A program made the translations under genes and the position numbers. The notes under the pieces were generated by a model, which saw nothing but the letters and a program-made list of their open reading frames with translations, was not told where the DNA came from and did not search any database. 64,000 bases of DNA from Deltaproteobacteria bacterium (lineage in GTDB: Bacteria; Desulfobacterota; GWC2-55-46; JAJCZF01), in contig JAJCZG010000019.1 of the NCBI GenBank assembly GCA_029262475.1, positions 5,789 to 69,788 of the forward strand. Direction: 5' to 3'. This document shows, piece by piece, positions 41,388-61,991 of this stretch. The stretch's first letter is position 1. The number at the start of each line of letters is the position of its first letter.

Positions 41388-41456
41388 TTCTTAAAAAGTA
41401 CGCCATGTTCCCTTCTTCGGGAACGGTTTTTGCTTGCATGCGTCGGAACGGTTTTC

Positions 41457-43264: not shown

Positions 43265-43319
43265 GAGTATCTCCCTGGAAGTAACGTAAACTCTAACTTC
43301 TTTAAGGTAAAGGTTTTAT

Positions 43320-44768: not shown

Positions 44769-44878
44769 CGGAAGGGCTCCGTGAAATCGGCCTCTCATTA
44801 ATCTGGCTCATATAGGGCCGCCGTCAGGCGAGCGCCTATTTGTAATATCTAGAAAATATTATATATCAAGGAGGAAAT

Positions 44879-45433: not shown

Positions 45434-45520
45434 AGAAGGTTTTCACGGCGTTTTTGGCCGTCCGGTTACGAATATTACTAAGCGAAGGGGCCGCCTTGTA
45501 GCGGTCTAAGGTGATTATAG

Positions 45521-45982
45521 ATGAGACTCGAAGATCTACTGATCGAGAAGAATATTATTCCGGATCTAAGTGCGAGTGAAAAGCGCGGCCTCCTTGACGA
45601 GATGGTGGAGGTTATTGTCTCAAACGAGAAGTCCCTTGGCAGGGACGAGCTCCTGGAGATACTCCTCGAAAGAGAACAGCTTGGAAGTACCGGCATAGGT
45701 CACGGCGTGGCGATACCGCACGGTAAGATAAGCGGGCTGAAACAAATCATCGTCTCCTTTGGCAGGAGTAAAAGGGGTATTGATTTCCAGTCCATGGACG
45801 AAGAGCCCGTTCACCTCTTCTTCATGATAATAGCTCCCGAGAACTCCACAGCGGCTCACCTGAAAGTGCTCTCCAATATATCGAGGATACTTAAAGACAG
45901 CGCCATGAGAAAGAAGCTCCTTAAGGCCGCAAGCCGCGAGGATATCTACAGCATTATCATAGAAGCGGATAGAACGCTTTAA
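45521..45982 (+). CDS. ptsN: PTS IIA-like nitrogen-regulatory protein PtsN (EIIA-Ntr)
   Basis: REQLGSTGIGHGVAIPHGK contains the phosphorylatable His. 153 aa. It lies after hpf. Confidence 0.9.
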   Translation: MRLEDLLIEKNIIPDLSASEKRGLLDEMVEVIVSNEKSLGRDELLEILLEREQLGSTGIGHGVAIPHGKISGLKQIIVSFGRSKRGIDFQSMDEEPVHLFFMIIAPENSTAAHLKVLSNISRILKDSAMRKKLLKAASREDIYSIIIEADRTL

Positions 45983-46085
45983 CGCCATTAACTCTACTTG
46001 CGGAAGCTGCGGCTTCTTTCCCCTAATCGGTCTATTTTCTCCGGGAGAGAGGGGCTCGGCCTGGCGAGCGGGCGAGGACTTTAAT

Positions 46086-47030
46086 ATGGCAATGAAACTA
46101 AGAGAGCTTGCCGGTGAGGACGCCGTCGGGCTTATGAAGCTTTCTATATACGCCGGTGAGGACGGCCTCGATAGAGTGCTCACGAACCAGCACATACAGA
46201 AGCCCGGGCTCCTGCTGACCGGTATGCTCGAGGGGCTTCATGAAGACCGGATACAGGTCTTCGGCGCGGCTGAAGTGGGTTACCTTAAGATACTTAACTC
46301 GAATGACCTTACTAGAACCATCGGCCTTATAGACAAAGCGTCGATACCGGCCATTATAGTTACCAGGGGGCTTGAGCCGCCCGATGCCCTTGTGGAGCTA
46401 GCCGGCAGGAAGGCGATGCCGCTCTTTACCACCAAACTCTCTTCATCGGTCTTTATTGAAAGGCTTACGGGTTTTCTCGACGAGTGGTACGCCATGGAGA
46501 CGACCCTTCACGGGGTGCTGGTGGATGTGCTCGGTATCGGTATCCTGATAATGGGCAAGAGCGGGGTCGGAAAGAGCGAGTGCGCCCTCGATCTCATTAT
46601 CAGGGGATATAGGCTCGTCGCCGACGACGCGGTGATCGTCAAGAGGAAGCACCCTTATACGCTATTCGGAGAGGCCTCGGATATCATAAGCTATCATATG
46701 GAGATAAGGGGTCTCGGTATAATAAATATCAAGGATATTTTCGGTATTACGGCCATAAGGAAGAAGAAGCTTATGGACCTGGTCGTCGAACTCGTGGAGT
46801 GGGCCCCTGACGGTGATTATGAGAGGCTTGGCTTCGACGAGATGAAGTACGATATCCTCGGCGTGGAGCTTCCGTACCTGAGGATCCCGATAAGCCCTGG
46901 CAGGAGTGTAGCCACAATAGTGGAGATCGCCGCGAGGAACAGGATACTTAAGATTATGGGCTACGACTCCACAAGGCAGTTCGAGGCCCATTTAAATAAA
47001 GTCATTGCTTCGGAGAGCGGGAAGGAATAA
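46086..47030 (+). CDS. hprK: HPr kinase/phosphorylase
   Basis: GVLVDVLGIGILIMGKSGVGKSECALDLI (P-loop) and HMEIRGLGIINIKDIFG signature. Confidence 0.93.
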   Translation: MAMKLRELAGEDAVGLMKLSIYAGEDGLDRVLTNQHIQKPGLLLTGMLEGLHEDRIQVFGAAEVGYLKILNSNDLTRTIGLIDKASIPAIIVTRGLEPPDALVELAGRKAMPLFTTKLSSSVFIERLTGFLDEWYAMETTLHGVLVDVLGIGILIMGKSGVGKSECALDLIIRGYRLVADDAVIVKRKHPYTLFGEASDIISYHMEIRGLGIINIKDIFGITAIRKKKLMDLVVELVEWAPDGDYERLGFDEMKYDILGVELPYLRIPISPGRSVATIVEIAARNRILKIMGYDSTRQFEAHLNKVIASESGKE

Positions 47031-47032
47031 CA

Positions 47033-47896
47033 TTGGAGAAGGTACGTCTTGTCGTCCTAAGCGGCCCGTCCGGGGCCGGGAAGAGCACATCCATGAAGGT
47101 GATGGAGGATCTCGGCTTCTACTGCGTCGACAATATGCCCGTAGCGCTTCTTCCGAACTTTCTGGAGATCCTCGACGCCTCAAGCGAGATAACAAAGGCG
47201 GCCACCGTGATAGATGTCAGGGAGGGCTCTTTTTTAAAAGATTTCCCGGCGACATTTTTGAAGCTGAAGGAGGCCGGTTACGGTGCGGAGCTGATATATC
47301 TCGATGCGAATGACGATTCCCTCGTTAAGCGTTTTAGTGAGACGAGAAGACGCCACCCGCTTGCCGAAGCCAAAAGCCCTCTGGAGGGGATCGGCCTCGA
47401 AAGAGAACTCCTTGGCAAGGTAAGGGCGCTCGCCGACAGGGTAATAGATACAACTAGTTATAATGTTCACGATCTTAAGGATTTCCTGAAGGAAAACTTC
47501 GCCTCGCCTCTCATGGGAGAGAAGATGATAGTGAATATCATGAGCTTCGGCTACCGGTACGGCTTACCGACGGAGAGCGACATGGTGATTGACGTGAGGT
47601 TCCTTAAAAACCCGCACTTCGTAGAGGCGCTTAAGCCGCTTTCCGGGCTCGATACGGAAGTAAGTGATTACGTTCTTAAAAGTAAAGAGACCGGGGAGTT
47701 TATGGATAGATTTACGGGTTTTCTTCAGTACCTCATTCCGCTCTACTGGAAGGAGGGAAAGTCGTATCTTTCGATATCTGTAGGGTGTACCGGCGGGCGC
47801 CATAGGTCGGTAGCTATAACGGAGTTCCTTGCAAGCGTTCTCGGAACGGAGAAGGCGGTTATACGTCGCCGTCACAGGGATATTGACAGACTTTGA
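47033..47896 (+). CDS. rapZ: RNase adapter protein RapZ (YhbJ)
   Basis: LVVLSGPSGAGKST, FYCVDNMP, and C-terminal VGCTGGRHRSVAI. TTG start 2 nt after the hprK stop. Confidence 0.92.
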   Translation: MEKVRLVVLSGPSGAGKSTSMKVMEDLGFYCVDNMPVALLPNFLEILDASSEITKAATVIDVREGSFLKDFPATFLKLKEAGYGAELIYLDANDDSLVKRFSETRRRHPLAEAKSPLEGIGLERELLGKVRALADRVIDTTSYNVHDLKDFLKENFASPLMGEKMIVNIMSFGYRYGLPTESDMVIDVRFLKNPHFVEALKPLSGLDTEVSDYVLKSKETGEFMDRFTGFLQYLIPLYWKEGKSYLSISVGCTGGRHRSVAITEFLASVLGTEKAVIRRRHRDIDRL

Positions 47897-48476: not shown

Positions 48477-48758
48477 TTGGAAGACGATTTTACTTCAAGA
48501 ACCTATATAATTAAGAATAAACTCGGGTTGCACGCAAGGGCTGCTTCCCTTCTGGTAAAAACCTCCTGTCAGTTCAAGGCAGATATATTTCTCTCAAAGG
48601 ACGGTCAGGAGGTTAACGGAAAGAGTATTATGGGGATACTGATACTCGCCGCGGCAAAGGGTACTGAGATTGTAATTAAGGCGAAGGGTGAAGACGCCGA
48701 GTGTGCTCTCGATGCGTTAGGCGACCTTATAGACAGGTATTTCGACGAGGAACAATGA
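48477..48758 (+). CDS. ptsH: phosphocarrier protein HPr/NPr
   Basis: NKLGLHARAAS contains the His-15 site, and NGKSIMGIL the Ser-46-region site. TTG start 8 nt after GGAGG. Confidence 0.9.
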   Translation: MEDDFTSRTYIIKNKLGLHARAASLLVKTSCQFKADIFLSKDGQEVNGKSIMGILILAAAKGTEIVIKAKGEDAECALDALGDLIDRYFDEEQ

Positions 48759-50521
48759 GTTTTAAAAAAGACTCCATACTGATGAAGGGACTAGGCGTCT
48801 CTTCCGGGATAGTGATCGGAACGGTTCACTTATTCGATAGGGGCGAGCTCGAGCCGGTGCAGTACTGCCATCTCGACAGCCGAGCGCTCGACTATGAGAT
48901 CGAAAGGTTCAATAAGGCGCTTACCGAGAGCAAGGATCAGATATTAAGGATCAGGAATAAGCTCGAAGAAGAGGGCGGCCAGGCGAAGGAACATATCCAG
49001 ATCATCGACGCCAATCTCCTCATCTTCGAGGATCAGATGCTCATAGACGATACCATTAAGGTCATCCGCGAAGATAAGATCAACGCGGAGTGGGCTCTGA
49101 AGAAGGTTCTGACCCGTCTGATGGAGCTCTTCGACAATATGGAGGATGAGTATTTCAAGGAGCGAGGCTCCGACATCGAGCAATCGGTAAATAGAATACT
49201 CATAAACCTCATGGGGAAGAAGCATGAGAATATCTCCGAGATCGATGAGCCCTCTATAATCGTCGCCCACGACCTCGGCCCGAGCGATACGGCCCAGATG
49301 GCCAAGGGCAAGGTGCTAGCCTTCCTAACCGACGTAGGCGGGAGGACCTCGCACACCTCGATTATGGCTAGAAGCCTTGAGATACCGGCAGTCGTCGGAC
49401 TTGAGTCTGTAACGCACCAGGTCGAGACGGGAGATACCGTTGTAATCGACGGAACGACCGGCACCGTAATAATAAACCCTTCGGATAAGGTAATAGAGGT
49501 CTATCAGCAGAAGAGGGTTCGCTACGAGCAGTACAATCAGGACCTCCATCGTTACAGGGATCTGCCCGCAGAGACTACGGACGGTAAAATAGTAGAGATC
49601 ATGGGCAATATAGAGATCGTCGATGAGATGGGGTCTCTAATAGATCACGGTGCCGAGGGCATAGGTCTCTACAGAAGCGAGTTCCTATATCTTAACCGCC
49701 GGGAGCTGCCGACGGAAGAAGAACACCTGGAGGCCTACAAAAAAGTCGCCGAGAATATGGACGGCAAACCCGTAATCATCAGGACGCTCGATATCGGCGG
49801 AGACAAACCCCTTCCTTTCCTCGACCTTGACGAGGAGAGTAACCCGGCTATGGGGCTTCGGGCCATAAGGCTCTGCTTCGACAGAGTCGATATATTTAAG
49901 ACTCAACTAAGGGGCATACTTCGCGCTAGCGCCTTCGGCAATATAAAGGTCATGTTCCCGATGATATCAGGCGTTCACGAGCTAAGGCGCGCCAAGAGTA
50001 TCCTGGAAGAGACGAAGGAAGAATTAACGGCCGAGGGTATCGAATATAACCCCGATATGGAGGTCGGAATTATGATAGAGGTGCCGAGCGCCGCCCTTGT
50101 CGCCGATCTTCTGGCCAAGGAGTCGGACTTCTTCTCCATCGGGACCAACGACCTTATTCAGTACACCATCGCCATCGACAGGGTAAACGAGCATGTCGCA
50201 TACCTCTTCGAACCCTCACACCCTGCGATTTTAAGGGTGATAAAGCAGGTCGTAAAGGCCGCTAACGACGCCGGTATAAGCGTCGGTATCTGCGGTGAGA
50301 TGGCGGGTGAGCCTGTATACGCCATCGTATTCCTCGGCCTCGGTATAAAGCATTTGAGCATGAGCGCCGGCTCTCTACTTAAGGTGAAGAAGCTCATCCG
50401 TGAAGTAAGTTACGAAGACGCCAAGGATATCTGCGATACGATAATGACCTTCGATACCGCAAGGGAGATAGAGGAGTTTCTTGCAAGCAGGCTCGCCGGT
50501 ATTTTGAAGGAAGAATATTAG
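48755..50521 (+). CDS. ptsI: phosphoenolpyruvate-protein phosphotransferase (PTS enzyme I)
   Basis: GGRTSHTSIMARSLEIPAVVG contains the phospho-His. GIGLYRSEFLY and SIGTNDLIQYT are present. The ATG at 48755 overlaps the HPr stop as ATGA. The ORF track's upstream extension is unlikely. Confidence 0.95.
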   Translation: MSFKKDSILMKGLGVSSGIVIGTVHLFDRGELEPVQYCHLDSRALDYEIERFNKALTESKDQILRIRNKLEEEGGQAKEHIQIIDANLLIFEDQMLIDDTIKVIREDKINAEWALKKVLTRLMELFDNMEDEYFKERGSDIEQSVNRILINLMGKKHENISEIDEPSIIVAHDLGPSDTAQMAKGKVLAFLTDVGGRTSHTSIMARSLEIPAVVGLESVTHQVETGDTVVIDGTTGTVIINPSDKVIEVYQQKRVRYEQYNQDLHRYRDLPAETTDGKIVEIMGNIEIVDEMGSLIDHGAEGIGLYRSEFLYLNRRELPTEEEHLEAYKKVAENMDGKPVIIRTLDIGGDKPLPFLDLDEESNPAMGLRAIRLCFDRVDIFKTQLRGILRASAFGNIKVMFPMISGVHELRRAKSILEETKEELTAEGIEYNPDMEVGIMIEVPSAALVADLLAKESDFFSIGTNDLIQYTIAIDRVNEHVAYLFEPSHPAILRVIKQVVKAANDAGISVGICGEMAGEPVYAIVFLGLGIKHLSMSAGSLLKVKKLIREVSYEDAKDICDTIMTFDTAREIEEFLASRLAGILKEEY

Positions 50522-50764: not shown

Positions 50765-50838
50765 GCGGGCGTAATTCAGTGGCAGAATGGGAGCTTCCCA
50801 AGCTTTCTACGGGGGTTCGATTCCCCTCGCCCGCTCCA
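50765..50838 (+). tRNA. tRNA-Gly (anticodon CCC), with encoded CCA
   Basis: Hand-folded cloverleaf: acceptor gcgggcg/cgcccgc, D-arm attc/gaat, anticodon stem ggagc/gcttt with loop ttCCCaa, T-arm ggggg-ttcgatt-cccct, then discriminator t and cca. Confidence 0.9.
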
Positions 50839-51135: not shown

Positions 51136-52437
51136 ATGATGACGAAGATAAAGGTAGAAGACCTTCAGAAGGGTATGAGCGTGAAGGCCCTCTCCATTGA
51201 CGGAAAGAAGGCAGATCAGTCCTTTGCCAAACCACGTCGCGTTAACGGCCCCAAGGATATAAAAGATATTTACAGTAAGGGTTACAGGTATGCCCATGTC
51301 GTGATGTTAGAGGAAGCTACAGGCAAAGAAAGCTCCGGAAAGGCCATGGTCGTCGAGACCCTGGGGCGAGAGGTCGGTAAAGGAGAAGGAAGGCTTGAGT
51401 TTGTAGGAGGCTGGGATCTCCCCCCTGAAGACGGTGAGGTAGATGATAGCGACCTCATGGATGCGCAAGAGACAGAGGACGAGCTTGAAGAGCCTCCGGT
51501 CGAGACACCCTTCGCCGAAGAGATAAGATGCGCACAGAAGGTTAAAGAGGAGGCCGCAGACGTAGTTCGTGATTTCATGGAGGATGCGAGGACCGGGAAG
51601 GGGATGGAGACCGGGAAGGCTAAAGAGGTCGTCGGTAATATGATTGAGAGTGTCTTTAGGAACCAGGACGCCCTTCTGAGCCTCGCAAGGCTTAAAAACT
51701 ATGATAATTATACCTTTGGCCACTGCGTAAACGTCTCTATCTTATCCCTTGCGCTCGGCAGGTATCTCGGTCTCTCGAAGAGTGAATTGTACCTGCTCGG
51801 CACCGGAGCGCTTCTTCACGATACGGGAAAGATGCTTGTGCCGGATAAAATCTTAAACAAACCCGCCAAACTTACCCTGGATGAATTCGAAGAGATAAAA
51901 AAGCATGTCACCTACTCCATGGAGCTTCTCTCGAAGAGCGGTAATATAGACAAGAGATCGGTTAATATAGCCTACCAGCACCATGAGAAGTTTAACGGAA
52001 GCGGCTACCCACTGAGCCTCGCCGGAGAGAAGATCGATTTCTTCGGGCGCATGGTGGCAATCGTAGACGTCTATGACGCCATTACGAGCCAGAGGGTATA
52101 CGAGCCGAATAACAAGATGGCCAACGTCGCCATGAAGATGATATTTAATGTCAAAGGACAGCACTTCGACCCTGACATTGTCGACCCGTTCGTAAAGTGC
52201 CTCGGCATATACCCGGTTGGGAGTTTCGTAGCCTTGAATACCGGAGAGACGGCCCTTGTGAAGTCGGTAAACAGGAAAGATCTCTTAAAACCTACCGTGC
52301 TTGTAATCTACGATATATATAAGCTCAAGCTCAAGGGGCCCTACGAGATCAACCTGAGCCACATACCGTCGGTCAGCATAGAATCCTCTGTGAAATCACC
52401 GATAAGCGAGGAAGAGATAAGCAAGTATCTTGACTGA
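51136..52437 (+). CDS. HD-GYP domain c-di-GMP phosphodiesterase with a DUF3391-like N-terminus and an acidic linker
   Basis: HDTGKMLVP, HHEKFNGSGYPLSL (canonical HD...HHE..GSGYP) and N-terminal KVEDLQKGMSV. Confidence 0.88.
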   Translation: MMTKIKVEDLQKGMSVKALSIDGKKADQSFAKPRRVNGPKDIKDIYSKGYRYAHVVMLEEATGKESSGKAMVVETLGREVGKGEGRLEFVGGWDLPPEDGEVDDSDLMDAQETEDELEEPPVETPFAEEIRCAQKVKEEAADVVRDFMEDARTGKGMETGKAKEVVGNMIESVFRNQDALLSLARLKNYDNYTFGHCVNVSILSLALGRYLGLSKSELYLLGTGALLHDTGKMLVPDKILNKPAKLTLDEFEEIKKHVTYSMELLSKSGNIDKRSVNIAYQHHEKFNGSGYPLSLAGEKIDFFGRMVAIVDVYDAITSQRVYEPNNKMANVAMKMIFNVKGQHFDPDIVDPFVKCLGIYPVGSFVALNTGETALVKSVNRKDLLKPTVLVIYDIYKLKLKGPYEINLSHIPSVSIESSVKSPISEEEISKYLD

Positions 52438-52586: not shown

Positions 52587-53732
52587 ATGTCAAAGAAGAT
52601 CGATACTTCCTCTACCGACGTCTCTTCCAAGAGCGGTCCTCCTGAGATTATAGGCCGGGCCGTTACTGTTATCGGTGAGGAGATAGACGGCGACGCTCTT
52701 CTCGTTATAGTGGAAGATACGGAGCCGGAGGTCGAAGCACCTGAGGGTGATGCCGCTACTCCTAAAGCCGTCAAGCGCCGTAAAATTGTAATAACCGATT
52801 CTATCGACTTCGGTGACGAGCTTGAAGATGCGCGTTCTATCCAGGATGAGGCAATCCCTGTCATAAAGGATTTTATGTCTCAAGCCTCTAACGGCAGTAT
52901 AGACGACGTAGACGCCGCAAAGGCGATAGTCGAAAAGGTCGTTAGCAGCATCTTCAGGAATCAGGACTCGATGTTAAGCCTCATCAGGGTTAAGAATGAA
53001 GAGCAATACACAATCGGTCACTCGCTAAATGTTGCTGTTATGGCGATTGCAATCGGAAGGCAGATGGGGTTCTCGAAGGAGAAGGTTAAGCTCCTCGGCC
53101 TCTCTGCGATATTCCATGACGTCGGAAGGGTGCTCGTCCCGGAAGCTCTCCTTAAGAAGAGCGGGCCGCTCACGGATGAAGAGTTTTCAGCCGTGAAGAA
53201 GCACACTTCGCTCGGCTCGGAGCTCCTTGGTAAGTGCAGCGCGCTGCCGGAGGAGGTCGCGAAGGTCGCGGCAGAGCACCACGAACGTTATGACGCCAGG
53301 GGTTACGAACTGGGCCTTGAGGGAAGAGATATCGCACTCTTCGCCAGGGTCGTCGCAATAGCGGATGTCTACGACGCCGCAACAACTAATCTTCCCTACG
53401 GAGAGACTTTAAAGCAGGCTGATGCTGTGAAATTCATCTATGACCGTGGCGGAAAGCAATTCGATAAGCGTATCCTCGAAAAATTTCTAAAATGCTTAGG
53501 GGTATATCCTATAGGTAGTTTTGTAAGGTTAAGTACCGGACAGGCCGCACTCGTCAGGGGACAGAACAGAAGTAACCTTCTAAGACCTAAGGTGCTCGTC
53601 CTCTTCGATAAGGAGGGTCTCAGATATCACAGGACATTCGACTTCGACCTCCTTCAGGAAGAAGACAAGCATGTCGTCTCCGCCATCGATTCATCCGAGT
53701 TCAAGGTGAATGTAGACGAATATCTTGTCTGA
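52587..53732 (+). CDS. HD-GYP-family protein with a degenerate GYP motif (HHERYDARGYE)
   Basis: HDVGRVLVP is retained. The GYP box reads ...DARGYELGL, with GYE at nt 53301-53309. The N-terminus is acidic and lacks the DUF3391-like block. Confidence 0.85.
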   Translation: MSKKIDTSSTDVSSKSGPPEIIGRAVTVIGEEIDGDALLVIVEDTEPEVEAPEGDAATPKAVKRRKIVITDSIDFGDELEDARSIQDEAIPVIKDFMSQASNGSIDDVDAAKAIVEKVVSSIFRNQDSMLSLIRVKNEEQYTIGHSLNVAVMAIAIGRQMGFSKEKVKLLGLSAIFHDVGRVLVPEALLKKSGPLTDEEFSAVKKHTSLGSELLGKCSALPEEVAKVAAEHHERYDARGYELGLEGRDIALFARVVAIADVYDAATTNLPYGETLKQADAVKFIYDRGGKQFDKRILEKFLKCLGVYPIGSFVRLSTGQAALVRGQNRSNLLRPKVLVLFDKEGLRYHRTFDFDLLQEEDKHVVSAIDSSEFKVNVDEYLV

Positions 53733-53929: not shown

Positions 53930-54424
53930 GTGAAAAATATTCGTATTATAATAGCGGTATTTGCCTTCATGATTATCGCGGGATGTTCCCATATAGAGTC
54001 CTATGAGGGCTTTGTGAAGCGCGGGGATAGACTGGCCGAACGTGAGAAATACGCTGAGGCCGCTCAGAACTATAGTTACGCATGGCAGATGGTGGAGAGG
54101 GAAGGGGCGAATAAGCCTGTCAGTTATAGGAGCTCCAAGACTTTTATCCTCCAAAAGCGCGCTGACATGCGAGAAAAGCTCGGCGATGAGAAGGGTGTTG
54201 CCGATGACAGGAAGCTCGCCACCTACATCAAGACTAAGAACTACCATTACGAGAGAAATTATAAACGGCTTATGGAGAAGCTCACGGAGCAGGGCCTTTC
54301 GAGCTGCGGCCCGTTCCCCCTCGAGGAGTGCGTAAATAATCTCATCTTGCACGGCCCCCAGACAATAGAAGTACCCGACGGCTTCCTCTTCATCAACATG
54401 GAGGGTAACGTCTTATGGGAATAA
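53930..54424 (+). CDS. hypothetical lipoprotein
   Basis: GTG start after AAAGGAGAG. Lipobox FMIIAGC. 164 aa. I recognise no family. Confidence 0.6.
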   Translation: MKNIRIIIAVFAFMIIAGCSHIESYEGFVKRGDRLAEREKYAEAAQNYSYAWQMVEREGANKPVSYRSSKTFILQKRADMREKLGDEKGVADDRKLATYIKTKNYHYERNYKRLMEKLTEQGLSSCGPFPLEECVNNLILHGPQTIEVPDGFLFINMEGNVLWE

Positions 54425-54481
54425 CCTAGCCTGCGGGGCGCCAAGGCCTCCGGGATAAATTATATTGAATATAAATAAAGA

Positions 54482-54520
54482 CCCCCCTGTAGTTACAAAC
54501 TACAGGGGGGTTCGTTTTTT
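54482..54520. terminator. bidirectional rho-independent terminator between convergent transcription units
   Basis: 12-bp stem cccccctgtagt/actacagggggg, followed by ttcgTTTTTT on the plus strand and an A-rich tract upstream (a T-tract on the minus strand). Confidence 0.85.
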
Positions 54521-54653: not shown

Positions 54654-55535
54654 CTATACCGCTTCGCTTTCGTCTTCCGGGAACTCAATCTCTACAGATG
54701 TATGGCCGTATTCCTGCAAGCGGTTTGTTTTGACCTTGATGTCGCAGGGGTTACAGTGTCCGTAGTCGTCGCAGGGGCGGTATATTTCTTCTATCTGGAA
54801 TGCGGGGTCGAGGATGTTCCCGACCGGCGCGCGCCCTTCGTAGAGGTCGCTGTGGCATCTATAGACAGAGGCGTCGGGCCCCATTATTAACTCGGTCGTC
54901 TTGCAGAGGACGTGTTTTTTGAAGGTCTTATCGCATGCCCCCTCGTAACGGAAGCTCCCGTATAACTTGCCTTCGTACTCGCCCAGAAATTCCTTAAAGC
55001 GGAAGTCGATGCCCTTTTCCGTACATATCGCCTGGGCTTCCCGTACGACGTCTTCTTGTGTCGGGTGGAGGACAGACCATATGCCGATGCTAAAGTTCGC
55101 CTCTAACATGCGCTGGACCTTTTCGATCAAGGGGTTTAGCTCCATCACCTCCGGGTGGTAGCTAACTCTGATGGAAGCGTACGGGGCGTCGCGCTTAATA
55201 CGCGCCGGGTCCATCTTGGCGATAAACTCCTCGACGTCGAATTGGAGGTTCGTGAGGATATCGATCTTTAGCTCCGGCTTTATATTATTTAGTATATATA
55301 TGAAGTCTTTGTGGATGCTCGGTTCGCCGCCCTGAAGCGTGAGCGGCAGATCCTTCCTGGGTACTATCCGGTTAAGCCCCTTTACCCACTCTTCGCCGGA
55401 GATATGCTTCTTTACGCTCGCCGGCAGGCCGAAGTGGTTAATGCAGTAGCTGCACGTAAGGTTACAGCCGAGTGTCAGGAAGGCCGCCACGTAGTTATGG
55501 CTAGCGGGTATTATAATGGGTTTAAGGTCGCTCAT
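54654..55535 (-). CDS. radical SAM protein (operon gene 7) with a Cys/His-rich C-terminus
   Basis: GCNLTCSYC (Cx3Cx2C), a LTLQGGEPS glycine-rich SAM motif, and C-terminal CHSDLY...CDDYGHCNPCD. Confidence 0.85.
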   Translation of the reverse strand: MSDLKPIIIPASHNYVAAFLTLGCNLTCSYCINHFGLPASVKKHISGEEWVKGLNRIVPRKDLPLTLQGGEPSIHKDFIYILNNIKPELKIDILTNLQFDVEEFIAKMDPARIKRDAPYASIRVSYHPEVMELNPLIEKVQRMLEANFSIGIWSVLHPTQEDVVREAQAICTEKGIDFRFKEFLGEYEGKLYGSFRYEGACDKTFKKHVLCKTTELIMGPDASVYRCHSDLYEGRAPVGNILDPAFQIEEIYRPCDDYGHCNPCDIKVKTNRLQEYGHTSVEIEFPEDESEAV

Positions 55536-55537
55536 GA

Positions 55538-56476
55538 TCAGCCCTTCTCATTAAAGAGTTTTTCTATGTTGGCGTAAACGGTCTCTACGCTTATGTCGTA
55601 CATGCAGCTTCTTTCCATGACGCACTCTGTGCTCAGGCACGGGAGGCAGTCGTACTCCTTCTCCGGGAGGAGCTTGACGCCGTTCTTAAGGTAAACTTCG
55701 GTGGAGATCGTCGGCCCGAAGAGGGAGACTATCTTCTTACCCAGCGCATGGGCGATGTGGAGCCCGAGCGAGTCGTTGGTTACGAGGAGATCGACGGAGT
55801 TTATCCAGTCGATATAATCCTCGATGGAGTTTTGACCCTCTTGCCAGCTAACGGTGCGTCTGCCTTTAAGCTTCTCTTCGAGCGCTTTCCAGTACTCCGT
55901 CGGCCATGCCTTGATGGGCCACTTATTACCGACGTTAAAGTTAAAGCCTATGTCGAACTTTTCTTCCCGTTCCTTTGGCTTGTAGCCGAGTACAGGGGCT
56001 TCATTTTGCCACTCGGAGCCTACCATCTCGAAGAGGATATGCTCCCAGTACTTGTTGCTTGAAATCTTATCGCCCGGGTTTACGCACATCTCTATAACGT
56101 GCTGTGAGCCGTCGTAGGCCTTGGCCGTGCCGCTATCCGGGTCGAAGCGGAAGCCGTAGCGCCGCCATGCCGTAATGGAGTCGGCAAGGGCGCAGAGCCC
56201 GGCGACCTTTTCGAGGTTTATGATCGTATCGAAGCGTTCGGCCTGGAGCTGAAGAACGCTCGTCAGGTCGTAGGGGAAGATCCTCTCGATATAGGGGTTG
56301 CCCTTGAGGAGAAGGATCGCCTTTTCATCGACGAGCCAGCTTACGCTCGCGTCTTTAAAGAGGTGAAGAAGTACCGTGCTCCTAAGAACGTCCCCGAGGC
56401 TCGTCGTCCTGCTTATCTCGTTAACGAGTGTCTCCGAGTAACCCGGTTTAATTATAAGCACTCTCTCTTTTGACAA
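55538..56476 (-). CDS. glycosyltransferase family 9 (heptosyltransferase-fold) protein (operon gene 6)
   Basis: RVLIIKPGYSETL..SLGDVLRSTVLL at the N-terminus. LLVTNDSLGLHIAHALGKKIVSLFGPT at the C-terminus. TTG start. Confidence 0.75.
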   Translation of the reverse strand: MSKERVLIIKPGYSETLVNEISRTTSLGDVLRSTVLLHLFKDASVSWLVDEKAILLLKGNPYIERIFPYDLTSVLQLQAERFDTIINLEKVAGLCALADSITAWRRYGFRFDPDSGTAKAYDGSQHVIEMCVNPGDKISSNKYWEHILFEMVGSEWQNEAPVLGYKPKEREEKFDIGFNFNVGNKWPIKAWPTEYWKALEEKLKGRRTVSWQEGQNSIEDYIDWINSVDLLVTNDSLGLHIAHALGKKIVSLFGPTISTEVYLKNGVKLLPEKEYDCLPCLSTECVMERSCMYDISVETVYANIEKLFNEKG

Positions 56477-56489
56477 AGATATAATTCCC

Positions 56490-57968
56490 TTATTTTGTCT
56501 GTTTAAGGAGCGACTGATCGTCCTTGTGCTTGAACTTTTCCAGTATGAATGATTCGTAGATGGTCCTTATGGTATCCAGGACGGAGAACTTCATCGGGTA
56601 GATGCTCTTCTTGATAACATACGCCTTTACCAAAAAGTATGATACGAAATAGAGCTTCGTTAGCGGTAGTTTTATAAGCTTATTTACTACCAGGTTCCGT
56701 GTGGACGGAAAAAGCAGGCAGACCGTGCCGAGGAGCGAGAGGTTCACCTGCATGAGCTTTTCTTTATCCGTAAAGCCGCTTAGAGGCGAGAAGGTCTGGT
56801 AGTTCATGTGGAGCTTGTCGAAGTCTCCGTCGAAGAAGCCGTGCTTTATGGCGTACTCGCCGAGCTCTGTCTTCGGGTACGGGAAGAATACAGGGAACTC
56901 TCCGAATGTGACTTTGCAGGCAATATTAAGGTCCAGGCTCTCGATGTCGTTTTCAATGGTAGAGCCTGGGGTAGCGAGTATCGTATTCGAGAATGTCGGT
57001 ATCTCGTGCTTCCGGCATAGTGCGAACGCGTTGGTAAGGACCTCTTCTGCCATGTTGCGCTTTAGGATGTCGTCGCGTATGTGCGCGTTACCGCTCTCTA
57101 TGGACATGCTTATGGAGGCCATGCCGGCCTGCTTGAGTTTCTTAAGTACGGACTCTGTAAGGAGGTTAGCCCTCATGAGACAGTGAAAGGGCAGGCCAAT
57201 CTCTTTTGGGAATTTCTCGACGAATTCGTCGAGCCACTCGTCGTCCTTTAAGACGAATATGTCGTCGTAGAACTTTATGAACTGTGTAGGGTAGTTACTT
57301 TTAAGCTCTTTTAGTTCGGCTATGATGCGGTCCACGCTTAAGCGGCTCATGAGCGGGCCGTTCCCTTTGTAGAGCTTGTTGTATATGTGGTTAAAGCAGT
57401 AGGTGCACTTGTACGGGCAGCCCCGGCTTATCATAAAGCTCCTCATCGGGAACCTCCCGAGCCTCGTCTGTCTGTAGACTAGCTCCCGGTCCAGGAAGGG
57501 CAGATCGTCTAAGGTTCTTCTCCGTTCGCGCATCTTAAGGGGTTTGCCCGGCTGGTAGTTCTTCTTGGTTACAATATTGGGGATTATCTCCAGGGGGCGG
57601 TTGTCTCTGAGGTTACCGAGGAGCTCGGGCCAGGCGTCGTCCCCTTCGCCTACGCAGAGCGCGTCGATATCGTGCTTCATTATGATATCCGGGAAGAAGG
57701 TGACGTGCGGGCCGCCGAATACTGTAAATATTTTCGGATCGATCTTCTTTACCGCGTCGTTTGCCGTAATGTAATATCTGTGTTCGCCTGTCTTTGCGCT
57801 GAAGGCGGCGACATCGGGCTTGAACTTTTTTATCGTCTTCTTTAATTTGCCGTCGGCAAGGACGCATAGCTCCGTCTCGTGCCCCTTCTCCTTAGCAAGC
57901 GCTGAGAGGAGCATTACCCCCATAGGGTCTATATACTCGACGTCTTTTATTACAAATAGAATTCTCAT
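56490..57968 (-). CDS. B12-binding-domain radical SAM protein, class B type (operon gene 5)
   Basis: N-terminal Rossmann-like module MRILFVIKDVEYIDPMGVMLLSALAKEKGHE...FGGPHVTF, then SRGCPYKCTYC. 492 aa. Confidence 0.82.
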   Translation of the reverse strand: MRILFVIKDVEYIDPMGVMLLSALAKEKGHETELCVLADGKLKKTIKKFKPDVAAFSAKTGEHRYYITANDAVKKIDPKIFTVFGGPHVTFFPDIIMKHDIDALCVGEGDDAWPELLGNLRDNRPLEIIPNIVTKKNYQPGKPLKMRERRRTLDDLPFLDRELVYRQTRLGRFPMRSFMISRGCPYKCTYCFNHIYNKLYKGNGPLMSRLSVDRIIAELKELKSNYPTQFIKFYDDIFVLKDDEWLDEFVEKFPKEIGLPFHCLMRANLLTESVLKKLKQAGMASISMSIESGNAHIRDDILKRNMAEEVLTNAFALCRKHEIPTFSNTILATPGSTIENDIESLDLNIACKVTFGEFPVFFPYPKTELGEYAIKHGFFDGDFDKLHMNYQTFSPLSGFTDKEKLMQVNLSLLGTVCLLFPSTRNLVVNKLIKLPLTKLYFVSYFLVKAYVIKKSIYPMKFSVLDTIRTIYESFILEKFKHKDDQSLLKQTK

Positions 57969-57972
57969 ATAT

Positions 57973-58740
57973 TTATCCGAATTGTCCTATGCGCCTCGGG
58001 CGTTTGTTGTATTTGGCGCGTCCTGTGACCCGTACCTCGATAAAGAGGCCCCATAGCGCCGTGAAGACGCTCAAAATGTTTCTCGGAGCGAATGCCTTGC
58101 TCTCGCCGGCCTCGCGCTGGATTATATCTACTCCCACTTCGGTATAACTCGACCCGGATTTAATGAGCCTTACGAGTATCGTCGCCATATAGGCAAATCC
58201 GTGAGTCTTTATGGGAATTTTCTTTATATCCGAGCTCTTTAAGACGCATGTACCGTTATAGTAATGAAGATCGAGCCCGGAGATGAGGTTCATCAGCATT
58301 ACGAAGGCCTTTGATACGATCCTCCTCGACATTGGTCTAACCCACATATTCGCCGTATAGGGGACTATGATGTCGGCCATGCCGACATGGCCGAATATCT
58401 TCGAGATCGCCGCTTCCGGTATCTCGTTATCACCGGGTACCATTATAACATAATCCTTGGAGGCGATTCTAACCCCTTCTTTAAAGTTGTAGCCAAAGCC
58501 CATGTTAGTGGCGTTATGTATTACCTTAATGTGCTGGTCTTTGGCGCTAAGGCTGTCTGCTACTTTGCCGGTGTCGTCGGTGCTTTTGTCGTTAAAAATT
58601 AGTATCTCGTGGTCGCTAAAACGCTCACCGAGGGCTTTATTTATGCACTCGACCGTGCCTTCGATATTCTCGGCCTCGTTATACGCGGGCACTACGACCG
58701 ATATCGTCTGTTTTAAGTCTGTCATATTGTCATCCGGCAA
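57973..58740 (-). CDS. glycosyltransferase family 2 protein, polyprenyl-phosphate glycosyltransferase-like (operon gene 4)
   Basis: ISVVVPAYNEAENI, FNDKSTDDTG and VPGDNE (DxD-like). The alternative ATG at 58725 would remove the 11-nt overlap with the upstream gene. Confidence 0.82.
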   Translation of the reverse strand: MPDDNMTDLKQTISVVVPAYNEAENIEGTVECINKALGERFSDHEILIFNDKSTDDTGKVADSLSAKDQHIKVIHNATNMGFGYNFKEGVRIASKDYVIMVPGDNEIPEAAISKIFGHVGMADIIVPYTANMWVRPMSRRIVSKAFVMLMNLISGLDLHYYNGTCVLKSSDIKKIPIKTHGFAYMATILVRLIKSGSSYTEVGVDIIQREAGESKAFAPRNILSVFTALWGLFIEVRVTGRAKYNKRPRRIGQFG

Positions 58741-59776
58741 TCACCCTCTTTACCGCGTTCTCAATTTCAGTAACACCGGGGTAGTAGGCCGCTTCAAGGA
58801 CGGGGCTCGCCGGTGTCGGGCAGTCGGGGATGTTAATCCTCTCCACCGGGGCTTTGAGCGCGCCAAAGGCGTCTTCAACGAGCCTAGTCGTTATCTCAGC
58901 CCCAATGCCGCCGTACTGCCAGCCTGTGTCGGCTACGACGAGCCTGCCCGTCTTCTTTACAGAAGATATTATAAGCTCCGTATCTAGCGGCCTAAGTGTC
59001 CTCGGGTCTATTATCTCGCACTCAATGCCCTCTTCGGCGAGCGATCTCGCGGCCTTTGTCGCCTCTGCTGCCATATGCGATATCGCGACTATCGTCACAT
59101 CCGACCCTTCGCGCCTTACAACACCCTTACCGAGCGGCACGGTGTAGGGCTCTTCCGGCACGTGGCCTGTGTGTCCGTAGAGCCATCGGTGTTCGATAAA
59201 TATTACGGGGTTTCCGTCGGCGGAAGCGCTCATAAGGAGCCCCTTGGCATCGTACGGGGTCGCTGGCATTACTACCTTTAGCCCCGGGATGTGGGCGAAG
59301 AGGGCGTGGATATTTTGCGAGTGCTGCGCCGCAGAACCCCAGCCCCGCCCGACTATGCTCCTTATGACCATCGGCACGTGAACCGCGCCTCCAAACATAT
59401 AATGCCACTTTGCGGCGTGGTTTAAAATCGGGTCCATCGTGAGCGGCATGAAGTCGATACGCATGTGGACAAGTATCGGACGCATCCCCGCCGTAGCCGC
59501 GCCTGCGGCAATACCGGTAAGTGCGTTCTCGGCGAGCGGGGTGTCGAAGACGCGTTCGTCGCCGAACTCTGTATGGAGCCCTAGCGTAGAGCCGAAGACG
59601 CCGCCCGGGTCGTCTATGCCTTCGCCGAAGATAAAGACGCGCTCGTCGTCCCTAAGGAGCTGCGCCTGCGCTTCCCTTAGGGCCTCGGCGTAGGTGATGC
59701 CGCGAAGCGGCACGCTTGAGGCCTTGGCCGCCTCTTCGAATTCTGTCTTGTCGCTATATATCTTAGTCCAGGGCAT
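58730..59776 (-). CDS. TPP-dependent 2-oxoacid dehydrogenase E1 component, beta subunit (operon gene 3)
   Basis: ITYAEALREA..., VFIFGEGIDDPGGVFGST, FDTPLAENALTGIAAGAA and a C-terminal transketolase-C-like block, EIIDPRTLRPLD. Confidence 0.85.
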   Translation of the reverse strand: MPWTKIYSDKTEFEEAAKASSVPLRGITYAEALREAQAQLLRDDERVFIFGEGIDDPGGVFGSTLGLHTEFGDERVFDTPLAENALTGIAAGAATAGMRPILVHMRIDFMPLTMDPILNHAAKWHYMFGGAVHVPMVIRSIVGRGWGSAAQHSQNIHALFAHIPGLKVVMPATPYDAKGLLMSASADGNPVIFIEHRWLYGHTGHVPEEPYTVPLGKGVVRREGSDVTIVAISHMAAEATKAARSLAEEGIECEIIDPRTLRPLDTELIISSVKKTGRLVVADTGWQYGGIGAEITTRLVEDAFGALKAPVERINIPDCPTPASPVLEAAYYPGVTEIENAVKRVIAG

Positions 59777-59861
59777 CTTTAATTTTATTTCCCTTTATAG
59801 AGTTGGCTTCGGTTGAAGCTCTTTAGTATCCGGGTTTTGTAATTATATCGTGCTTTTAGTC

Positions 59862-60845
59862 TTACTCCCCTTTGAAGTAAACTTCTGTTAGAAGATCTTC
59901 CGCAAGCGGGTAAGGAGCGGCCTTACTGAAGCGTACGGCCTCTTCTATCTCTTCCGCGATAACAGCACCTATCTCGATAAGCCCGGCCTTATCCGATACT
60001 CCCTCATTTACGAGCCTGTCATCGAAGCGTTTCACCGGGCATTTCTCCATCCAATCCGTTAGCTCGACTTCCGGCCTGCACCCTTTAAGGTGGTCAGCTT
60101 CCGGCCCGACATGCCCTTTCCATCGGTAGGTTACGGCCTCTATGAGGCTCGGCCCCCCGCCTTCTCTCGCAAGCCCTATCGCTTCCTTCGCGGTAGCGTA
60201 GACGGCCTCGACATCATTTCCGTCAATGCATCTCCCCGGTATCTTGTAGGCGTTAGCCATCCCTGATATATCGCATGTGGCGTGCCTTGCGTGCTGCGGG
60301 GAGTTGGTGGCATAGCCGTTATTTTCACAGATAAATACAACAGGTAGATTTTTAAGCGCTGCGAAGTTCATGGACTCGTAGAAGACCCCCTCTTCAGAGG
60401 CCCCGTCTCCGAGGAATATGACGGTCACAAAACCGTCCTTTCTTATGCTTGAGGCGAGCGCTGAGCCGACGCCCATCGGGATGCCCCCTCCGACTATCGC
60501 CGAAGTCCCGAGCATCCCTCTCTCTACGTCCACGACATGCATGGAGCCGCCCTTGCCTTTGCTGCACCCTGCGGCCTTGCCGTAGAATTCAGCCATAAGG
60601 GCTTTTATATCCGCACCCTTGGCTATTGCGTGGCCGTGGCACCGGTGGTTGCTTACGATGTAGTCGGTCTTCGTTAGGTTTGCGCAGACGCCGGCGGCTA
60701 TCGCCTCCTGACCGATATAGAGGTGCACAGGGCACTTCATCTCCTGCTCCGGGTAGAGCTCGACGATCTTCTCCTCGAAGAGGCGAATTTTAAGCATCGT
60801 GGAGTAAAGGCCAAGTAAAGTTTCTTTTGAGAGTTTGCTCGTCAT
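59862..60845 (-). CDS. TPP-dependent 2-oxoacid dehydrogenase E1 component, alpha subunit (operon gene 2)
   Basis: TPP motif FLGDGASEEGVFYESMNFAALKNLPVVFICENNGYA, and YRWKGH. Confidence 0.85.
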   Translation of the reverse strand: MTSKLSKETLLGLYSTMLKIRLFEEKIVELYPEQEMKCPVHLYIGQEAIAAGVCANLTKTDYIVSNHRCHGHAIAKGADIKALMAEFYGKAAGCSKGKGGSMHVVDVERGMLGTSAIVGGGIPMGVGSALASSIRKDGFVTVIFLGDGASEEGVFYESMNFAALKNLPVVFICENNGYATNSPQHARHATCDISGMANAYKIPGRCIDGNDVEAVYATAKEAIGLAREGGGPSLIEAVTYRWKGHVGPEADHLKGCRPEVELTDWMEKCPVKRFDDRLVNEGVSDKAGLIEIGAVIAEEIEEAVRFSKAAPYPLAEDLLTEVYFKGE

Positions 60846-60857
60846 CTTAATTCTTTT

Positions 60858-61922
60858 TTATATAAAGTTAACGTGTCCGGACGGGTTTTTAAGTTCCCAC
60901 AGGTATCTGTTCACCTCGTCCATGCGGCAGTTTTGTCTACAGTTGGTCGTGTCGAGCTCTTTTGAAACGTACTCCATCATCTTTCTTCTCTTCTCACCCT
61001 TCCATACATTCTCAAAGCCGTCCTTTATGACGTTACCGAGAGAGAATCTCTCGTCCCCGAGGTATGCGCTACAGCCCCAGAGCCCTCCGCCCGCGTCTAT
61101 ATACGACCAGTAGGGAAGCGCCAGACAGCGCGTGTAGCGGTCCTGGTCTTCGAGCTTCTTCATGGTGCGCGAGCGGAATATGACCTGAAAATCGTCCGTG
61201 CTAAGAGGAGCGAGCTCATCTTCCAAGTGCATGTAGTCGGAGTATTTAAAATCTTTATAGAGTGTCGTGTGGCTCTTTAGGTGCTGCGAGTAGGGTTTTA
61301 TCACCAGATAGTCCGCGCCTATCTCGCGTGCCTTCCTGGCGAGTGGAACGGCCTCGTCAATGTTTTCCGGGAGGAGTATCATCTGCATGCCGATCGCACT
61401 CTTTAAACCCTTTTCTTTACGGTACTTTACGGCTAGTGAGATATTCTCGATAACCTTCTCTACATCGTCGGCCGCAGTCCTGTGGACCTTGGCGTATATC
61501 TCCGGACTTAGGGCGTTTATGCTCACCTTTATCCATGTTATCGAGGCTAAAGTCTCTTTAATGAGTTTTTCCTTAAAGAGGACGCCGTTTGAGGTGATGG
61601 CGACGTCTATGCCGCTCTCCTTGGTGTGGTTTATGATACCGGCGATATCCTTATGGAGGAGTGGTTCGCCCTCTCCGGCGAACATTACGCTCTTTATCCC
61701 CAGACGTCCCATCTCGGTTAGACGCTCTTTAAGTATATCGGTCTCTAAAAAGCGCGTCTGGTACTCCATGTAGTCGAGGGCGCAGTATGTGCACCTGTGG
61801 TTACACGCCCCGGCAGGAGATATCTCCACGTATATAGGGTAGATGTCAACGCCGCTAAGCCAGTCGTTTACCCTCGGTATATGGTATATTAACTTGTGGC
61901 TGTCTATCCTGAATTTGTCCAT
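60858..61922 (-). CDS. radical SAM protein (operon gene 1)
   Basis: GACNHRCTYC (Cx3Cx2C), FAGEGEPLL, and extra C-terminal cysteines (RCLALP...WGCSAY...NCRQNC). I prefer the ATG at 61922, which lies 8 nt after AAGGA and downstream of the predicted promoter. The ORF is open to 61958. Confidence 0.85.
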   Translation of the reverse strand: MDKFRIDSHKLIYHIPRVNDWLSGVDIYPIYVEISPAGACNHRCTYCALDYMEYQTRFLETDILKERLTEMGRLGIKSVMFAGEGEPLLHKDIAGIINHTKESGIDVAITSNGVLFKEKLIKETLASITWIKVSINALSPEIYAKVHRTAADDVEKVIENISLAVKYRKEKGLKSAIGMQMILLPENIDEAVPLARKAREIGADYLVIKPYSQHLKSHTTLYKDFKYSDYMHLEDELAPLSTDDFQVIFRSRTMKKLEDQDRYTRCLALPYWSYIDAGGGLWGCSAYLGDERFSLGNVIKDGFENVWKGEKRRKMMEYVSKELDTTNCRQNCRMDEVNRYLWELKNPSGHVNFI

Positions 61923-61961
61923 GTAAGAATTCCTTTTATATAATATAAACTTTGACATTTA

Positions 61962-61991
61962 ATTATAGCATAGCTAACTATTGCAGAACAA
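61962..61991 (-). promoter_or_regulatory. candidate extended -10 promoter (TTGTTC-N18-TGcTATAAT) for the radical-SAM operon
   Basis: Read on the reverse complement. Its position argues against the 61958 start codon. Confidence 0.45.

Follow-up and report, generated by a model that had tools for sequence, protein, structure and literature searches.

We analyzed a stretch of 64,000 nucleotides from a Deltaproteobacteria bacterium (GenBank assembly GCA_029262475.1, contig JAJCZG010000019.1), referred to here as the window, and focused on seven genes, g1 to g7, on the minus strand at window positions 54654-61958. A first-pass annotation had described them as seven co-directional open reading frames (ORFs) with gaps of -11 to +85 nt, encoding three radical S-adenosylmethionine (SAM) enzymes, a thiamine-dependent E1 alpha/beta pair, and two glycosyltransferases (GTs). 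All seven ORFs are present and tightly packed, and the intergenic gaps computed from the coordinates (from g1 to g7, +12, +85, -11, +4, +13, and +2 nt) bear out that description. The seven-gene set is a real operon, with the following features.

61962-61991, minus strand: candidate sigma-70 promoter, TTGTTC-18 nt-TATAAT, identified by reading the sequence itself
60858-61958, minus strand: g1, radical SAM enzyme with a SPASM/twitch C-terminal domain (Pfam Radical_SAM, 79 bits; SPASM, 26 bits)
59862-60845, minus strand: g2, thiamine diphosphate (ThDP) E1 alpha-type subunit (Pfam E1_dh, 249 bits)
58730-59776, minus strand: g3, E1 beta-type subunit (Pfam Transket_pyr and Transketolase_C)
57973-58740, minus strand: g4, GT2, probably of the polyprenyl-phosphate sugar synthase type (Pfam Glycos_transf_2, 81 bits)
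56490-57968, minus strand: g5, radical SAM enzyme with a B12-binding domain, class B architecture (Pfam B12-binding, 52 bits; Radical_SAM, 64 bits)
55538-56476, minus strand: g6, GT9 (heptosyltransferase-family) glycosyltransferase of the GT-B type (Pfam Glyco_transf_9, 45 bits)
54654-55535, minus strand: g7, small radical SAM enzyme with a predicted C-terminal auxiliary-cluster domain (Pfam Radical_SAM, 35 bits)
54480-54512, minus strand: intrinsic terminator, a bidirectional hairpin with a stem of 14-15 bp (8 GC pairs) and a 3-nt loop, followed by CTTTATTTAT

Each of the motifs quoted in the first-pass annotation is present in the translations, namely, GACNHRCTYC (g1), GDG...ENNGYA (g2), SRGCPYKCTYC (g5), and, in g7, both GCNLTCSYC and CHSDLY...CDDYGHCNPCD. 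The gene identities given there also stand, with every domain hit of g1 to g7 above its Pfam gathering score. At the downstream boundary, the hairpin proposed as a strong bidirectional terminator was confirmed; it lies approximately 140 nt downstream of g7 and has T-runs on both strands. The proposed promoter stands only in part, since its -10 box is perfect but its -35 box matches at only three of six positions, making it weak by consensus and explaining its absence from a consensus scan. Because only 3 nt separate the -10 box from the ATG annotated for g1, the true start of this gene is probably an internal ATG, Met13 at 61922, which has an AAGGA ribosome-binding site upstream and lies 12 codons (36 nt) later than annotated. 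From Met13, the protein would have about 354 amino acids, and its orthologues have 354 to 356. The G+C content is 0.51 to 0.53 in the operon and 0.47 to 0.56 elsewhere in the window; given this lack of a discontinuity, recent horizontal transfer of the operon is unsupported.

Conservation and synteny of the operon

Related loci (designated by L numbers) were collected with g7 as the query. Among one-genome-per-species contigs, the single g7 protein yielded 48 loci, and a g7 profile search found relatives in 387 species-representative genomes, the best 80 of which were fetched. Synteny was evaluated by tblastn of the seven proteins against the recovered loci, and counts were restricted to loci whose sequence extends 7.5 kb or more upstream of g7 (testable loci). 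Of the cluster's genes, g7 is conserved the most widely, with 2635 homologue clusters at an E value of ≤1e-3 (2162 clusters for g6); the best 120 of the 2635 show 63 to 99% identity and come from uncultured Deltaproteobacteria, Thermodesulfobacteriota, and Nitrospirae.

All seven genes occur in identical order in 25 of the 26 testable loci of one uncultured Deltaproteobacteria/Thermodesulfobacteriota clade (here, the delta clade), so the synteny across genomes that the first-pass annotation had named as a check was found. Among the 36 testable loci of other phyla, 22 carry g1, 20 carry a thiamine enzyme pair (15 with E1 alpha/beta and 5 with a split transketolase), 25 carry the GT2, and 24 carry the GT9; none has a true g5 orthologue (at least 45% identity). 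Two loci with shorter flanks, outside this count, do carry a g5 orthologue (L021 and L098). The B12-type radical SAM enzyme is therefore a clade-specific accessory with orthologues in the delta clade and these two loci only. The other phyla with the core include Planctomycetota (Brocadia and Anammoxibacter among them), Omnitrophota, Nitrospirota, Nitrospinota, Elusimicrobia, and Geobacter metagenome-assembled genomes (MAGs). Their usual order is GT9, g1, thiamine pair, in some cases a second g1-like radical SAM gene, GT2, in some cases two genes for small hydrophobic proteins, and g7. A Nitrospirae MAG (L049, 3175-10849) has a four-gene core only, E1 alpha-E1 beta-GT9-g7. Overall, the phylogenetically deep unit is the small radical SAM enzyme, the radical SAM/SPASM enzyme, and the two-subunit thiamine enzyme, usually with the GT9 and the GT2. 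The seven-gene unit of the first-pass annotation is conserved as such, but the full set is the elaboration by one clade of a smaller and wider core.

A degenerate DNA scan for the GHCNPCDIKVKT motif identified cultured carriers, Helicobacter cinaedi CCUG 18818 and Helicobacter valdiviensis, in addition to Arcobacter and Sulfurospirillum MAGs. The module of these Campylobacterota is reduced and consists of g7, g1, another SPASM radical SAM enzyme, a SAM methyltransferase, and a split transketolase (L124 of H. cinaedi CCUG 18818, NZ_DS990392.1; L143 of H. valdiviensis; L147 of a Sulfurospirillum MAG). The additional SPASM enzyme is broken into two ORFs in L124, where a frameshift is possible. 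We also observed two copies of the g6-g7 region in the MAG OFTM14 bin, L001 and L002, which are 96% and 80% identical to the window, respectively. This bin probably mixes two related populations, the window coming from that of the 2.7-kb contig.

The radical SAM enzymes

All three radical SAM proteins exceed the 29.5-bit cut-off of Radical_SAM (PF04055; g1, 79 bits; g5, 64 bits; g7, 35 bits), and their CX3CX2C cysteines are kept in all orthologues. In g1, cysteines 52, 56, and 59 of this motif and four C-terminal cysteines (278, 296, 340, and 344) are conserved in 24 orthologues, and the SPASM domain (PF13186) matches with 26.3 bits against a cut-off of 21.5 bits. The nearest solved relatives of g1 by sequence in the PDB are viperin-like enzymes, BlsE, and MoaA; among the NCBIfam models, it resembles DesII, below the cut-off. 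Viperin, BlsE, MoaA, and DesII are radical SAM enzymes acting on nucleotides or nucleotide-linked sugars.

In g7, cysteines 24, 28, and 31 and a further set at 211, 227, 255, 261, and 264 are invariant across phyla. No Pfam SPASM hit was obtained for g7, and searches of PDB sequences with g7 and g6 returned weak matches only. The AlphaFold (AF2) model of g7 has a predicted local distance difference test score (pLDDT) of 81, and its best Foldseek matches in the PDB are anSME, SkfB, PqqE, CteB, AbmM, and viperin, with template modeling (TM) scores of approximately 0.5. The five invariant C-terminal cysteines, together with the fold matches of this model, place g7 in the SPASM/twitch class, with predicted binding of an auxiliary cluster; the fold searches with g7 and g6 pointed to no particular substrate for either protein.

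The class B architecture of g5 consists of a B12-binding domain (PF02310; 51.8 bits, cut-off 32.1) and a Radical_SAM domain (63.9 bits). Its top NCBIfam scores are those for HpnJ (85 bits, cut-off 578) and for a lipid biosynthesis B12-binding/radical SAM family, TIGR04072 (85 bits, cut-off 360). The methylase models KedN5 (76 of 700), HpnR (72 of 650), and PhpK (68 of 600) all match far below their cut-offs, and nonmethylase models, namely, HpnJ, AprD4 (55 of 500), and BchE (53 of 481), score on par with them. In the PDB, g5 matches AprD4 at 1e-12 and TokK at 2e-8. It is a member of no characterized methylase family among the NCBIfam models, KedN5 and HpnR included, and its matches do not separate methylation from rearrangement or dehydration. 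The C-methylation proposed for g5 in the first-pass annotation is one option only.

The thiamine enzyme pair

The E1 alpha-type subunit g2 carries the GDG...NN ThDP motif, and its best PDB match is the human pyruvate dehydrogenase (PDH) E1 alpha subunit (4e-54). Its score against the PDH E1 alpha model TIGR03182 is 326 bits, under the cut-off of 393.85 bits. A Pfam scan outside the operon covered 46 ORFs of the window, that is, most but not all of those of at least 150 amino acids, and no lipoyl-E2 or E3 domain was found among them, in agreement with the first-pass description of an E1 pair without E2/E3. Neither was found among the called genes of the relatives L049 and L051.

The slot of g2/g3 is taken by a split transketolase (Transketolase_N and then Transket_pyr) in L027, L063, L068, L079, L084, L085, and L086. 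Two Planctomycetota loci of otherwise matching architecture differ in this respect, L063 carrying the transketolase and L064 the E1 pair. This exchange is a nonorthologous displacement of the thiamine enzyme, and it indicates that the cluster needs a thiamine-bound C2 carbanion rather than a dehydrogenase complex. Therefore, g2/g3 are most likely a stand-alone thiamine carboligase and not part of a dehydrogenase complex. A housekeeping PDH role is unlikely because of the transketolase swap, the 11-nt overlap of g3 with the GT2 gene g4, the lack of E2/E3 nearby, and the E1 alpha score below the cut-off.

The glycosyltransferases

Over the whole catalytic domain, the best PDB match of g4 is the dolichyl-phosphate mannose (Dol-P-Man) synthase of Pyrococcus furiosus (5mlz; E value, 1.4e-10; residues 8 to 216), with an alignment that ends at the RxxGESK segment (R..GESK); ArnC aligns over residues 12 to 220 with an E value of 2.6e-6. 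Full-length matches below the NCBIfam thresholds include ArnC, PpgS, AglJ, and a Dol-P-hexose transferase, the equivalog models being far under their cut-offs. The protein has 255 amino acids, and no transmembrane C terminus was found. These alignments suggest that g4 is probably a polyprenyl-phosphate sugar synthase and not a chain-building transferase, which keeps the GT2 assignment of the first-pass annotation and refines it toward enzymes like Dol-P-Man synthase and ArnC. Such a role would imply a GT-C partner acting in the periplasm.

The GT9 fold previously assigned to g6 was recovered in all of the 30 best Foldseek matches of its AlphaFold model (pLDDT, 77) in the PDB, including WaaC, the Veillonella protein 3tov, WaaF, and TibC, and PF01075 matches with 45 bits against a cut-off of 22 bits. 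Two motifs, SLGDV and DSLGLHIAHAL...FGPT, are conserved, as are four C-terminal cysteines. None of the heptosyltransferase I/II/III equivalogs is reached (TIGR02195, 42 bits against 135; TIGR02193, 40 against 185; TIGR02201, 30 against 170).

Gene neighborhoods in relatives

Related loci in other phyla carry genes for GT4 enzymes, DegT aminotransferases, NAD-epimerase/dehydratases, PMT_2 proteins, and DUF2079 membrane proteins, and some also carry a YerE-like thiamine enzyme of the acetolactate synthase type. Minimal g6-g7 pairs, seen in the Planctomycetes-Verrucomicrobia-Chlamydiae phyla, lie among further GTs (a second GT9 in L035; a GT4 and another GT in L034), a setting that recalls the lipopolysaccharide (LPS)-core (waa) clusters. 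The glycan genes, the transketolase swap, and the waa-like setting speak for the glycoconjugate proposed in the first-pass annotation, whereas its product, acceptor, and radical SAM chemistry stay conjectural.

A gene designated c7 converges with the operon in most of the delta-clade relatives and is followed by pilA, pilR, pilS, pilC, pilT, and pilB (L051, 11821-20933; also L003, L007, L055, and others). The c7 product is a multipass membrane protein with C-terminal TPR repeats and an FV(F/Y)DD motif in the first loop, and it aligns with the PMT_2 (protein O-mannosyltransferase-like) family with an hhalign probability of 65% (E value, 6e-5). A Planctomycetes MAG (L021) has three copies of c7 beside a rearranged cluster, and c7 is also found in L081; in Brocadia, among other loci, g7 is followed by PMT_2 proteins.

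A conserved ORF of 166 to 168 amino acids lies between g5 and g6 in approximately 30 delta-clade loci (L003, 8524-9024; L051, 9505-10011; and about 28 more). It has no Pfam match and is hydrophobic by inspection. Neither the window, with 13 nt between g5 and g6, nor its closest relative, L002, contains this ORF. Outside the delta clade, two hydrophobic proteins of approximately 175 amino acids, with no significant Pfam match, are encoded directly upstream of g7, and a second g1-like radical SAM gene (367 amino acids) adjoins the GT2 gene; one or both of these features were observed in L081, L095, L096, L100, L021, L026, and L027. The two hydrophobic proteins and the second g1-like enzyme may be functional counterparts of g5 and the 166-amino-acid protein. 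No homologue of the accessory genes of the relatives (c7, the pilin c8, the small hydrophobic c10, c20, and c22) was found in the whole 64-kb window.

Some neighbors were seen at single loci or pairs of loci. In L049, the core directly follows thiS-thiG-thiE-thiC and an HD-domain gene, with HepT/MNT toxin-antitoxin pairs thereafter; the adjacency to thi genes, seen at this one locus, is possibly coincidental. A PlsC-type acyltransferase gene adjoins the module in L124, and L143 and L147 have as a neighbor a large protein without a Pfam hit that resembles GT41/SPINDLY by eye.

Comparison with known systems

No paper describing this gene set was found in the full-text literature; subscription journals lay outside the coverage, so this is no proof of absence. 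The first-pass annotation had likewise been unable to match the gene combination to a characterized pathway. In architecture, g2/g3 can be likened to AviB1/AviB2 of avilamycin and Pau11/Pau12 of paulomycin biosynthesis, which are two-subunit E1-type enzymes in sugar/GT clusters without E2/E3. These pairs are proposed to install an acetyl C2 branch from pyruvate on a keto-sugar (PMC4753412), a precedent that the first-pass annotation had correctly named for AviB1/AviB2, and pyruvate is the likely C2 donor here as well. AviB and Pau enzymes act on nucleoside diphosphate (NDP)-4-keto-6-deoxy sugars made by dehydratases of the same clusters, in actinomycete antibiotic pathways without radical SAM enzymes. 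In contrast, the operon has no dehydratase, has two or three radical SAM enzymes as obligate partners, and is set among the envelope genes of anaerobic diderms. No source of an NDP-4-keto sugar was found in the operon or among the scanned ORFs of the window, and an NAD epimerase/dehydratase is present in only some of the loci of other phyla.

Thiamine-dependent C-C bond formation on a sugar bound for LPS or lipooligosaccharide, as proposed here, is also the chemistry of YerE, ErwE, and MMAR_2332, ThDP carboligases that make acyl-branched LPS sugars (PMC9306805), with yersiniose, erwiniose, and caryophyllose as products. Enzymes of the YerE type, however, are single-chain, acetolactate synthase-like flavoproteins, not E1 alpha/beta pairs or split transketolases, and they use cytidine diphosphate-4-keto-3,6-dideoxyglucose without any radical SAM enzyme. 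The operon could therefore be likened to the ThDP branched-sugar pathways minus their supply of NDP-keto-sugar and plus two or three radical SAM enzymes.

Similar likenesses and differences hold for the remaining genes. The fold and motifs of g6 are shared with WaaC/WaaF and the protein heptosyltransferase TibC, but g6 carries 13 extra residues ahead of the catalytic GD motif, comes with a radical SAM enzyme in every case, and has no ADP-heptose genes in sight nearby. The alignment of g4 across the full catalytic domain, and the PMT_2, DUF2079, and TPR-membrane proteins that accompany the cluster in many genomes, resemble the two-step systems ArnC/ArnT and Dol-P-Man synthase/PMT; unlike the ArnC/GtrB type, g4 lacks C-terminal transmembrane helices, and no GT-C gene is present in the window. 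Finally, a GT2 gene adjoins a gene for a B12-domain-type radical SAM enzyme in HpnI/HpnJ/HpnK systems and in PtmJ/PtmC-type systems for sugar rearrangement as it does here, but the operon has no deacetylase or hopanoid genes, and g5 is missing from most of the clusters that keep the core.

Proposed pathway and alternative explanations

We propose, with a probability of about 0.5, that the operon is devoted to making an unusual sugar for a cell-envelope glycoconjugate and is not part of central metabolism. All seven components belong to familiar superfamilies and the function is a conjecture; we hold each single mechanistic step, the substrate, and the acceptor, all of which we infer, with less confidence than this general statement. 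The substrate would be a sugar that is already nucleotide activated or carrier linked. A radical SAM enzyme of the SPASM/twitch type (g7, g1, or both) would abstract a hydrogen, giving a carbonyl or a radical centre on the sugar and replacing the chemistry of an NDP-sugar 4,6-dehydratase, which is the usual route in such branched-sugar pathways. Acting as a ThDP carboligase without E2/E3, g2/g3 would then decarboxylate pyruvate and add a C2 unit to the carbonyl, as has been suggested for AviB1/AviB2 and demonstrated with enzymes of the YerE type, yielding a branched or extended sugar. In the delta clade, g5 might add a further radical tailoring step, either C-methylation or rearrangement. A sugar could be loaded by g4 onto polyprenyl phosphate to serve in the periplasm, and g6 could work at the cytoplasmic face, transferring a sugar to a lipid-anchored acceptor that is most likely the LPS inner core.

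Several observations weigh against this pathway. No nucleotidyltransferase or 4,6-dehydratase was found in the operon or among the scanned ORFs of the window, where no GT-C partner for a polyprenyl-phosphate sugar is encoded and no ADP-heptose pathway genes were seen. The fold matches of g7, at TM scores of approximately 0.5, are as much to peptide-modifying as to sugar-modifying enzymes, and no NCBIfam equivalog cut-off is reached by g1, g5, or g7. The sole NCBIfam model passed by any of the seven proteins is a PDH E1 beta subfamily, NF006667, which g3 matches with 345 bits against a cut-off of 321 bits. The window also holds a lipoate-protein ligase (LplA/LipB-like) gene by Pfam (882-1685), so that lipoylated proteins exist in the organism, and an E2 or GcvH encoded elsewhere in the genome is possible. 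E1 normally delivers hydroxyethyl and transketolase dihydroxyethyl C2 units, and the two types of cluster may therefore yield different products. In addition, the close relatives are all MAGs.

The same chemistry may have another destination, a possibility that we consider unlikely but still give some weight. A GT-C enzyme in the periplasm would move the sugar loaded by the GT2 onto a surface protein, notably the type IV pilin. The convergent c7 and pil genes of most delta-clade relatives suggest such a link, as do the alignment of c7 with PMT_2, its FV(F/Y)DD motif, its copies in L021 and L081, and the PMT_2 proteins after g7 in Brocadia; g4 is Dol-P-Man synthase-like, and GT9 includes protein heptosyltransferases, with TibC among the Foldseek matches of g6. 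However, the adjacency in one clade may reflect inherited gene order rather than a functional link, and Pfam finds only the TPR repeats in c7. The window and its closest relative lack the pil arrangement, with no c7 or pilin homologue in the 64 kb, and we know of no pilin glycosylation in these organisms. Less probable still is the tailoring of a membrane-lipid head group, in which the GT2 would glycosylate a lipid, g5 would rearrange or methylate the sugar in the manner of HpnI/HpnJ, the enzymes of the hopanoid cyclitol ether, and the other proteins would elaborate the head group. HpnJ and TIGR04072 are indeed the top NCBIfam matches of g5, which lies 4 nt from g4, relatives of g7 are common in anammox bacteria, known for their unusual lipids, and a PlsC-type acyltransferase stands beside the H. 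cinaedi module. Yet the g5 scores amount to 15 to 25% of the family cut-offs, and the pathway cannot be defined by g5 when most of the phyla retaining the core lack a true orthologue of it. Moreover, no hopanoid, squalene, or fatty-acid genes occur in the window or in the syntenic loci, and the neighboring genes in other phyla are those usually found at loci for polysaccharides and LPS.

It is very unlikely that g2/g3 are an ordinary pyruvate or acetoin dehydrogenase E1 that has its E2/E3 elsewhere and lies among glycan genes by chance. The closeness of g2 to human E1 alpha, the subfamily cut-off passed by g3, and the lipoate-protein ligase-like gene would fit such an enzyme, but at least five phyla have the pair at the same point of the cluster, g3 overlaps the GT2 gene, and a split transketolase occupies the identical slot in other loci. 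The g2 score (326 against the 394-bit PDH equivalog cut-off) and the absence of E2/E3 from the scanned window ORFs and the called genes of L049 and L051 also argue against it. We rejected the idea that the radical SAM/SPASM enzymes mature a ribosomally synthesized and posttranslationally modified peptide that is then glycosylated, which we regard as extremely improbable. Although g1 has a SPASM domain, the predicted fold of g7 is like that of anSME, SkfB, PqqE, and CteB, and many of the NCBIfam matches below threshold are peptide maturases, no short precursor ORF, protease, or exporter was found in the operon, whose gaps do not exceed 85 nt. The extra small ORFs of the relatives have 166 to 187 amino acids, appear hydrophobic and membrane-like by inspection, and have no significant Pfam match, and the conserved partners are thiamine enzymes and glycosyltransferases. 

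A more specific version of the envelope-sugar pathway, which we advance only tentatively, is that the deep core of g7, g1, and the two-subunit thiamine enzyme is a widespread, uncharacterized route to a new class of carbon-extended or branched sugars. In such a route, radical chemistry, and not an NDP-sugar dehydratase, may make the electrophile for thiamine-dependent C-C bond formation.

The surrounding window

The remainder of the window consists of housekeeping genes, including nusA, infB, truB, pnp, ispG, trpE, and ptsI, as assigned by Pfam. A canonical kdsC-lptC-(lptA)-lptB-rpoN-hpf-hprK-rapZ block at 40687-47896 is followed by ptsI (48701-50521), and the presence of kdsC-lptC-lptB indicates that the organism is an LPS-making diderm. 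A complete-looking type II secretion cluster was observed at 22350-34773, with pseudopilins G/J/K, a secretin with an N-terminal SPOR domain, a GspE ATPase, and GspF; four ORFs at this cluster have no Pfam match (25483-26859, 27413-28609, 26860-27393, and 34240-34773).

Closer to the operon, tandem paralogous proteins of the HD-GYP type, as judged by inspection, are encoded at 51136-52437 and 52587-53732. Both have acidic, low-complexity N-terminal regions, and the pair sits downstream of tRNA-Gly(CCC) (50765-50838) and also flanks the operon in L002. An ORF of 164 amino acids without a Pfam match (53930-54424) lies between the HD-GYP genes and the end of the operon. This ORF and the two HD-GYP genes thus stand where most delta-clade relatives have c7 and the pil genes. 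On the other side, a gene for a DhnA/DeoC-family aldolase is divergent from g1.

Implications

Few biological chemistries at C-C and C-H bonds are as versatile as those of radical SAM and thiamine diphosphate, and we found no characterized pathway that couples the two inside a glycan cluster. The carriers of g7 relatives include groups of environmental importance that are mostly uncultured, namely, Thermodesulfobacteriota that cycle iron and sulfur, anammox Planctomycetota, Omnitrophota, and Nitrospirota. Since a reduced module is present in the cultured pathogen Helicobacter cinaedi, the question is experimentally tractable. If the proposed pathway is correct, it would correct the automated labels "pyruvate dehydrogenase E1" and "heptosyltransferase II" at these loci, the latter of which was seen among the homologue annotations, and would give functions to three large unannotated radical SAM families. 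It would also amount to a new principle by which branched or higher-carbon envelope sugars are built in anoxia, an anaerobic route to higher-carbon envelope sugars that would extend from anammox bacteria to H. cinaedi.

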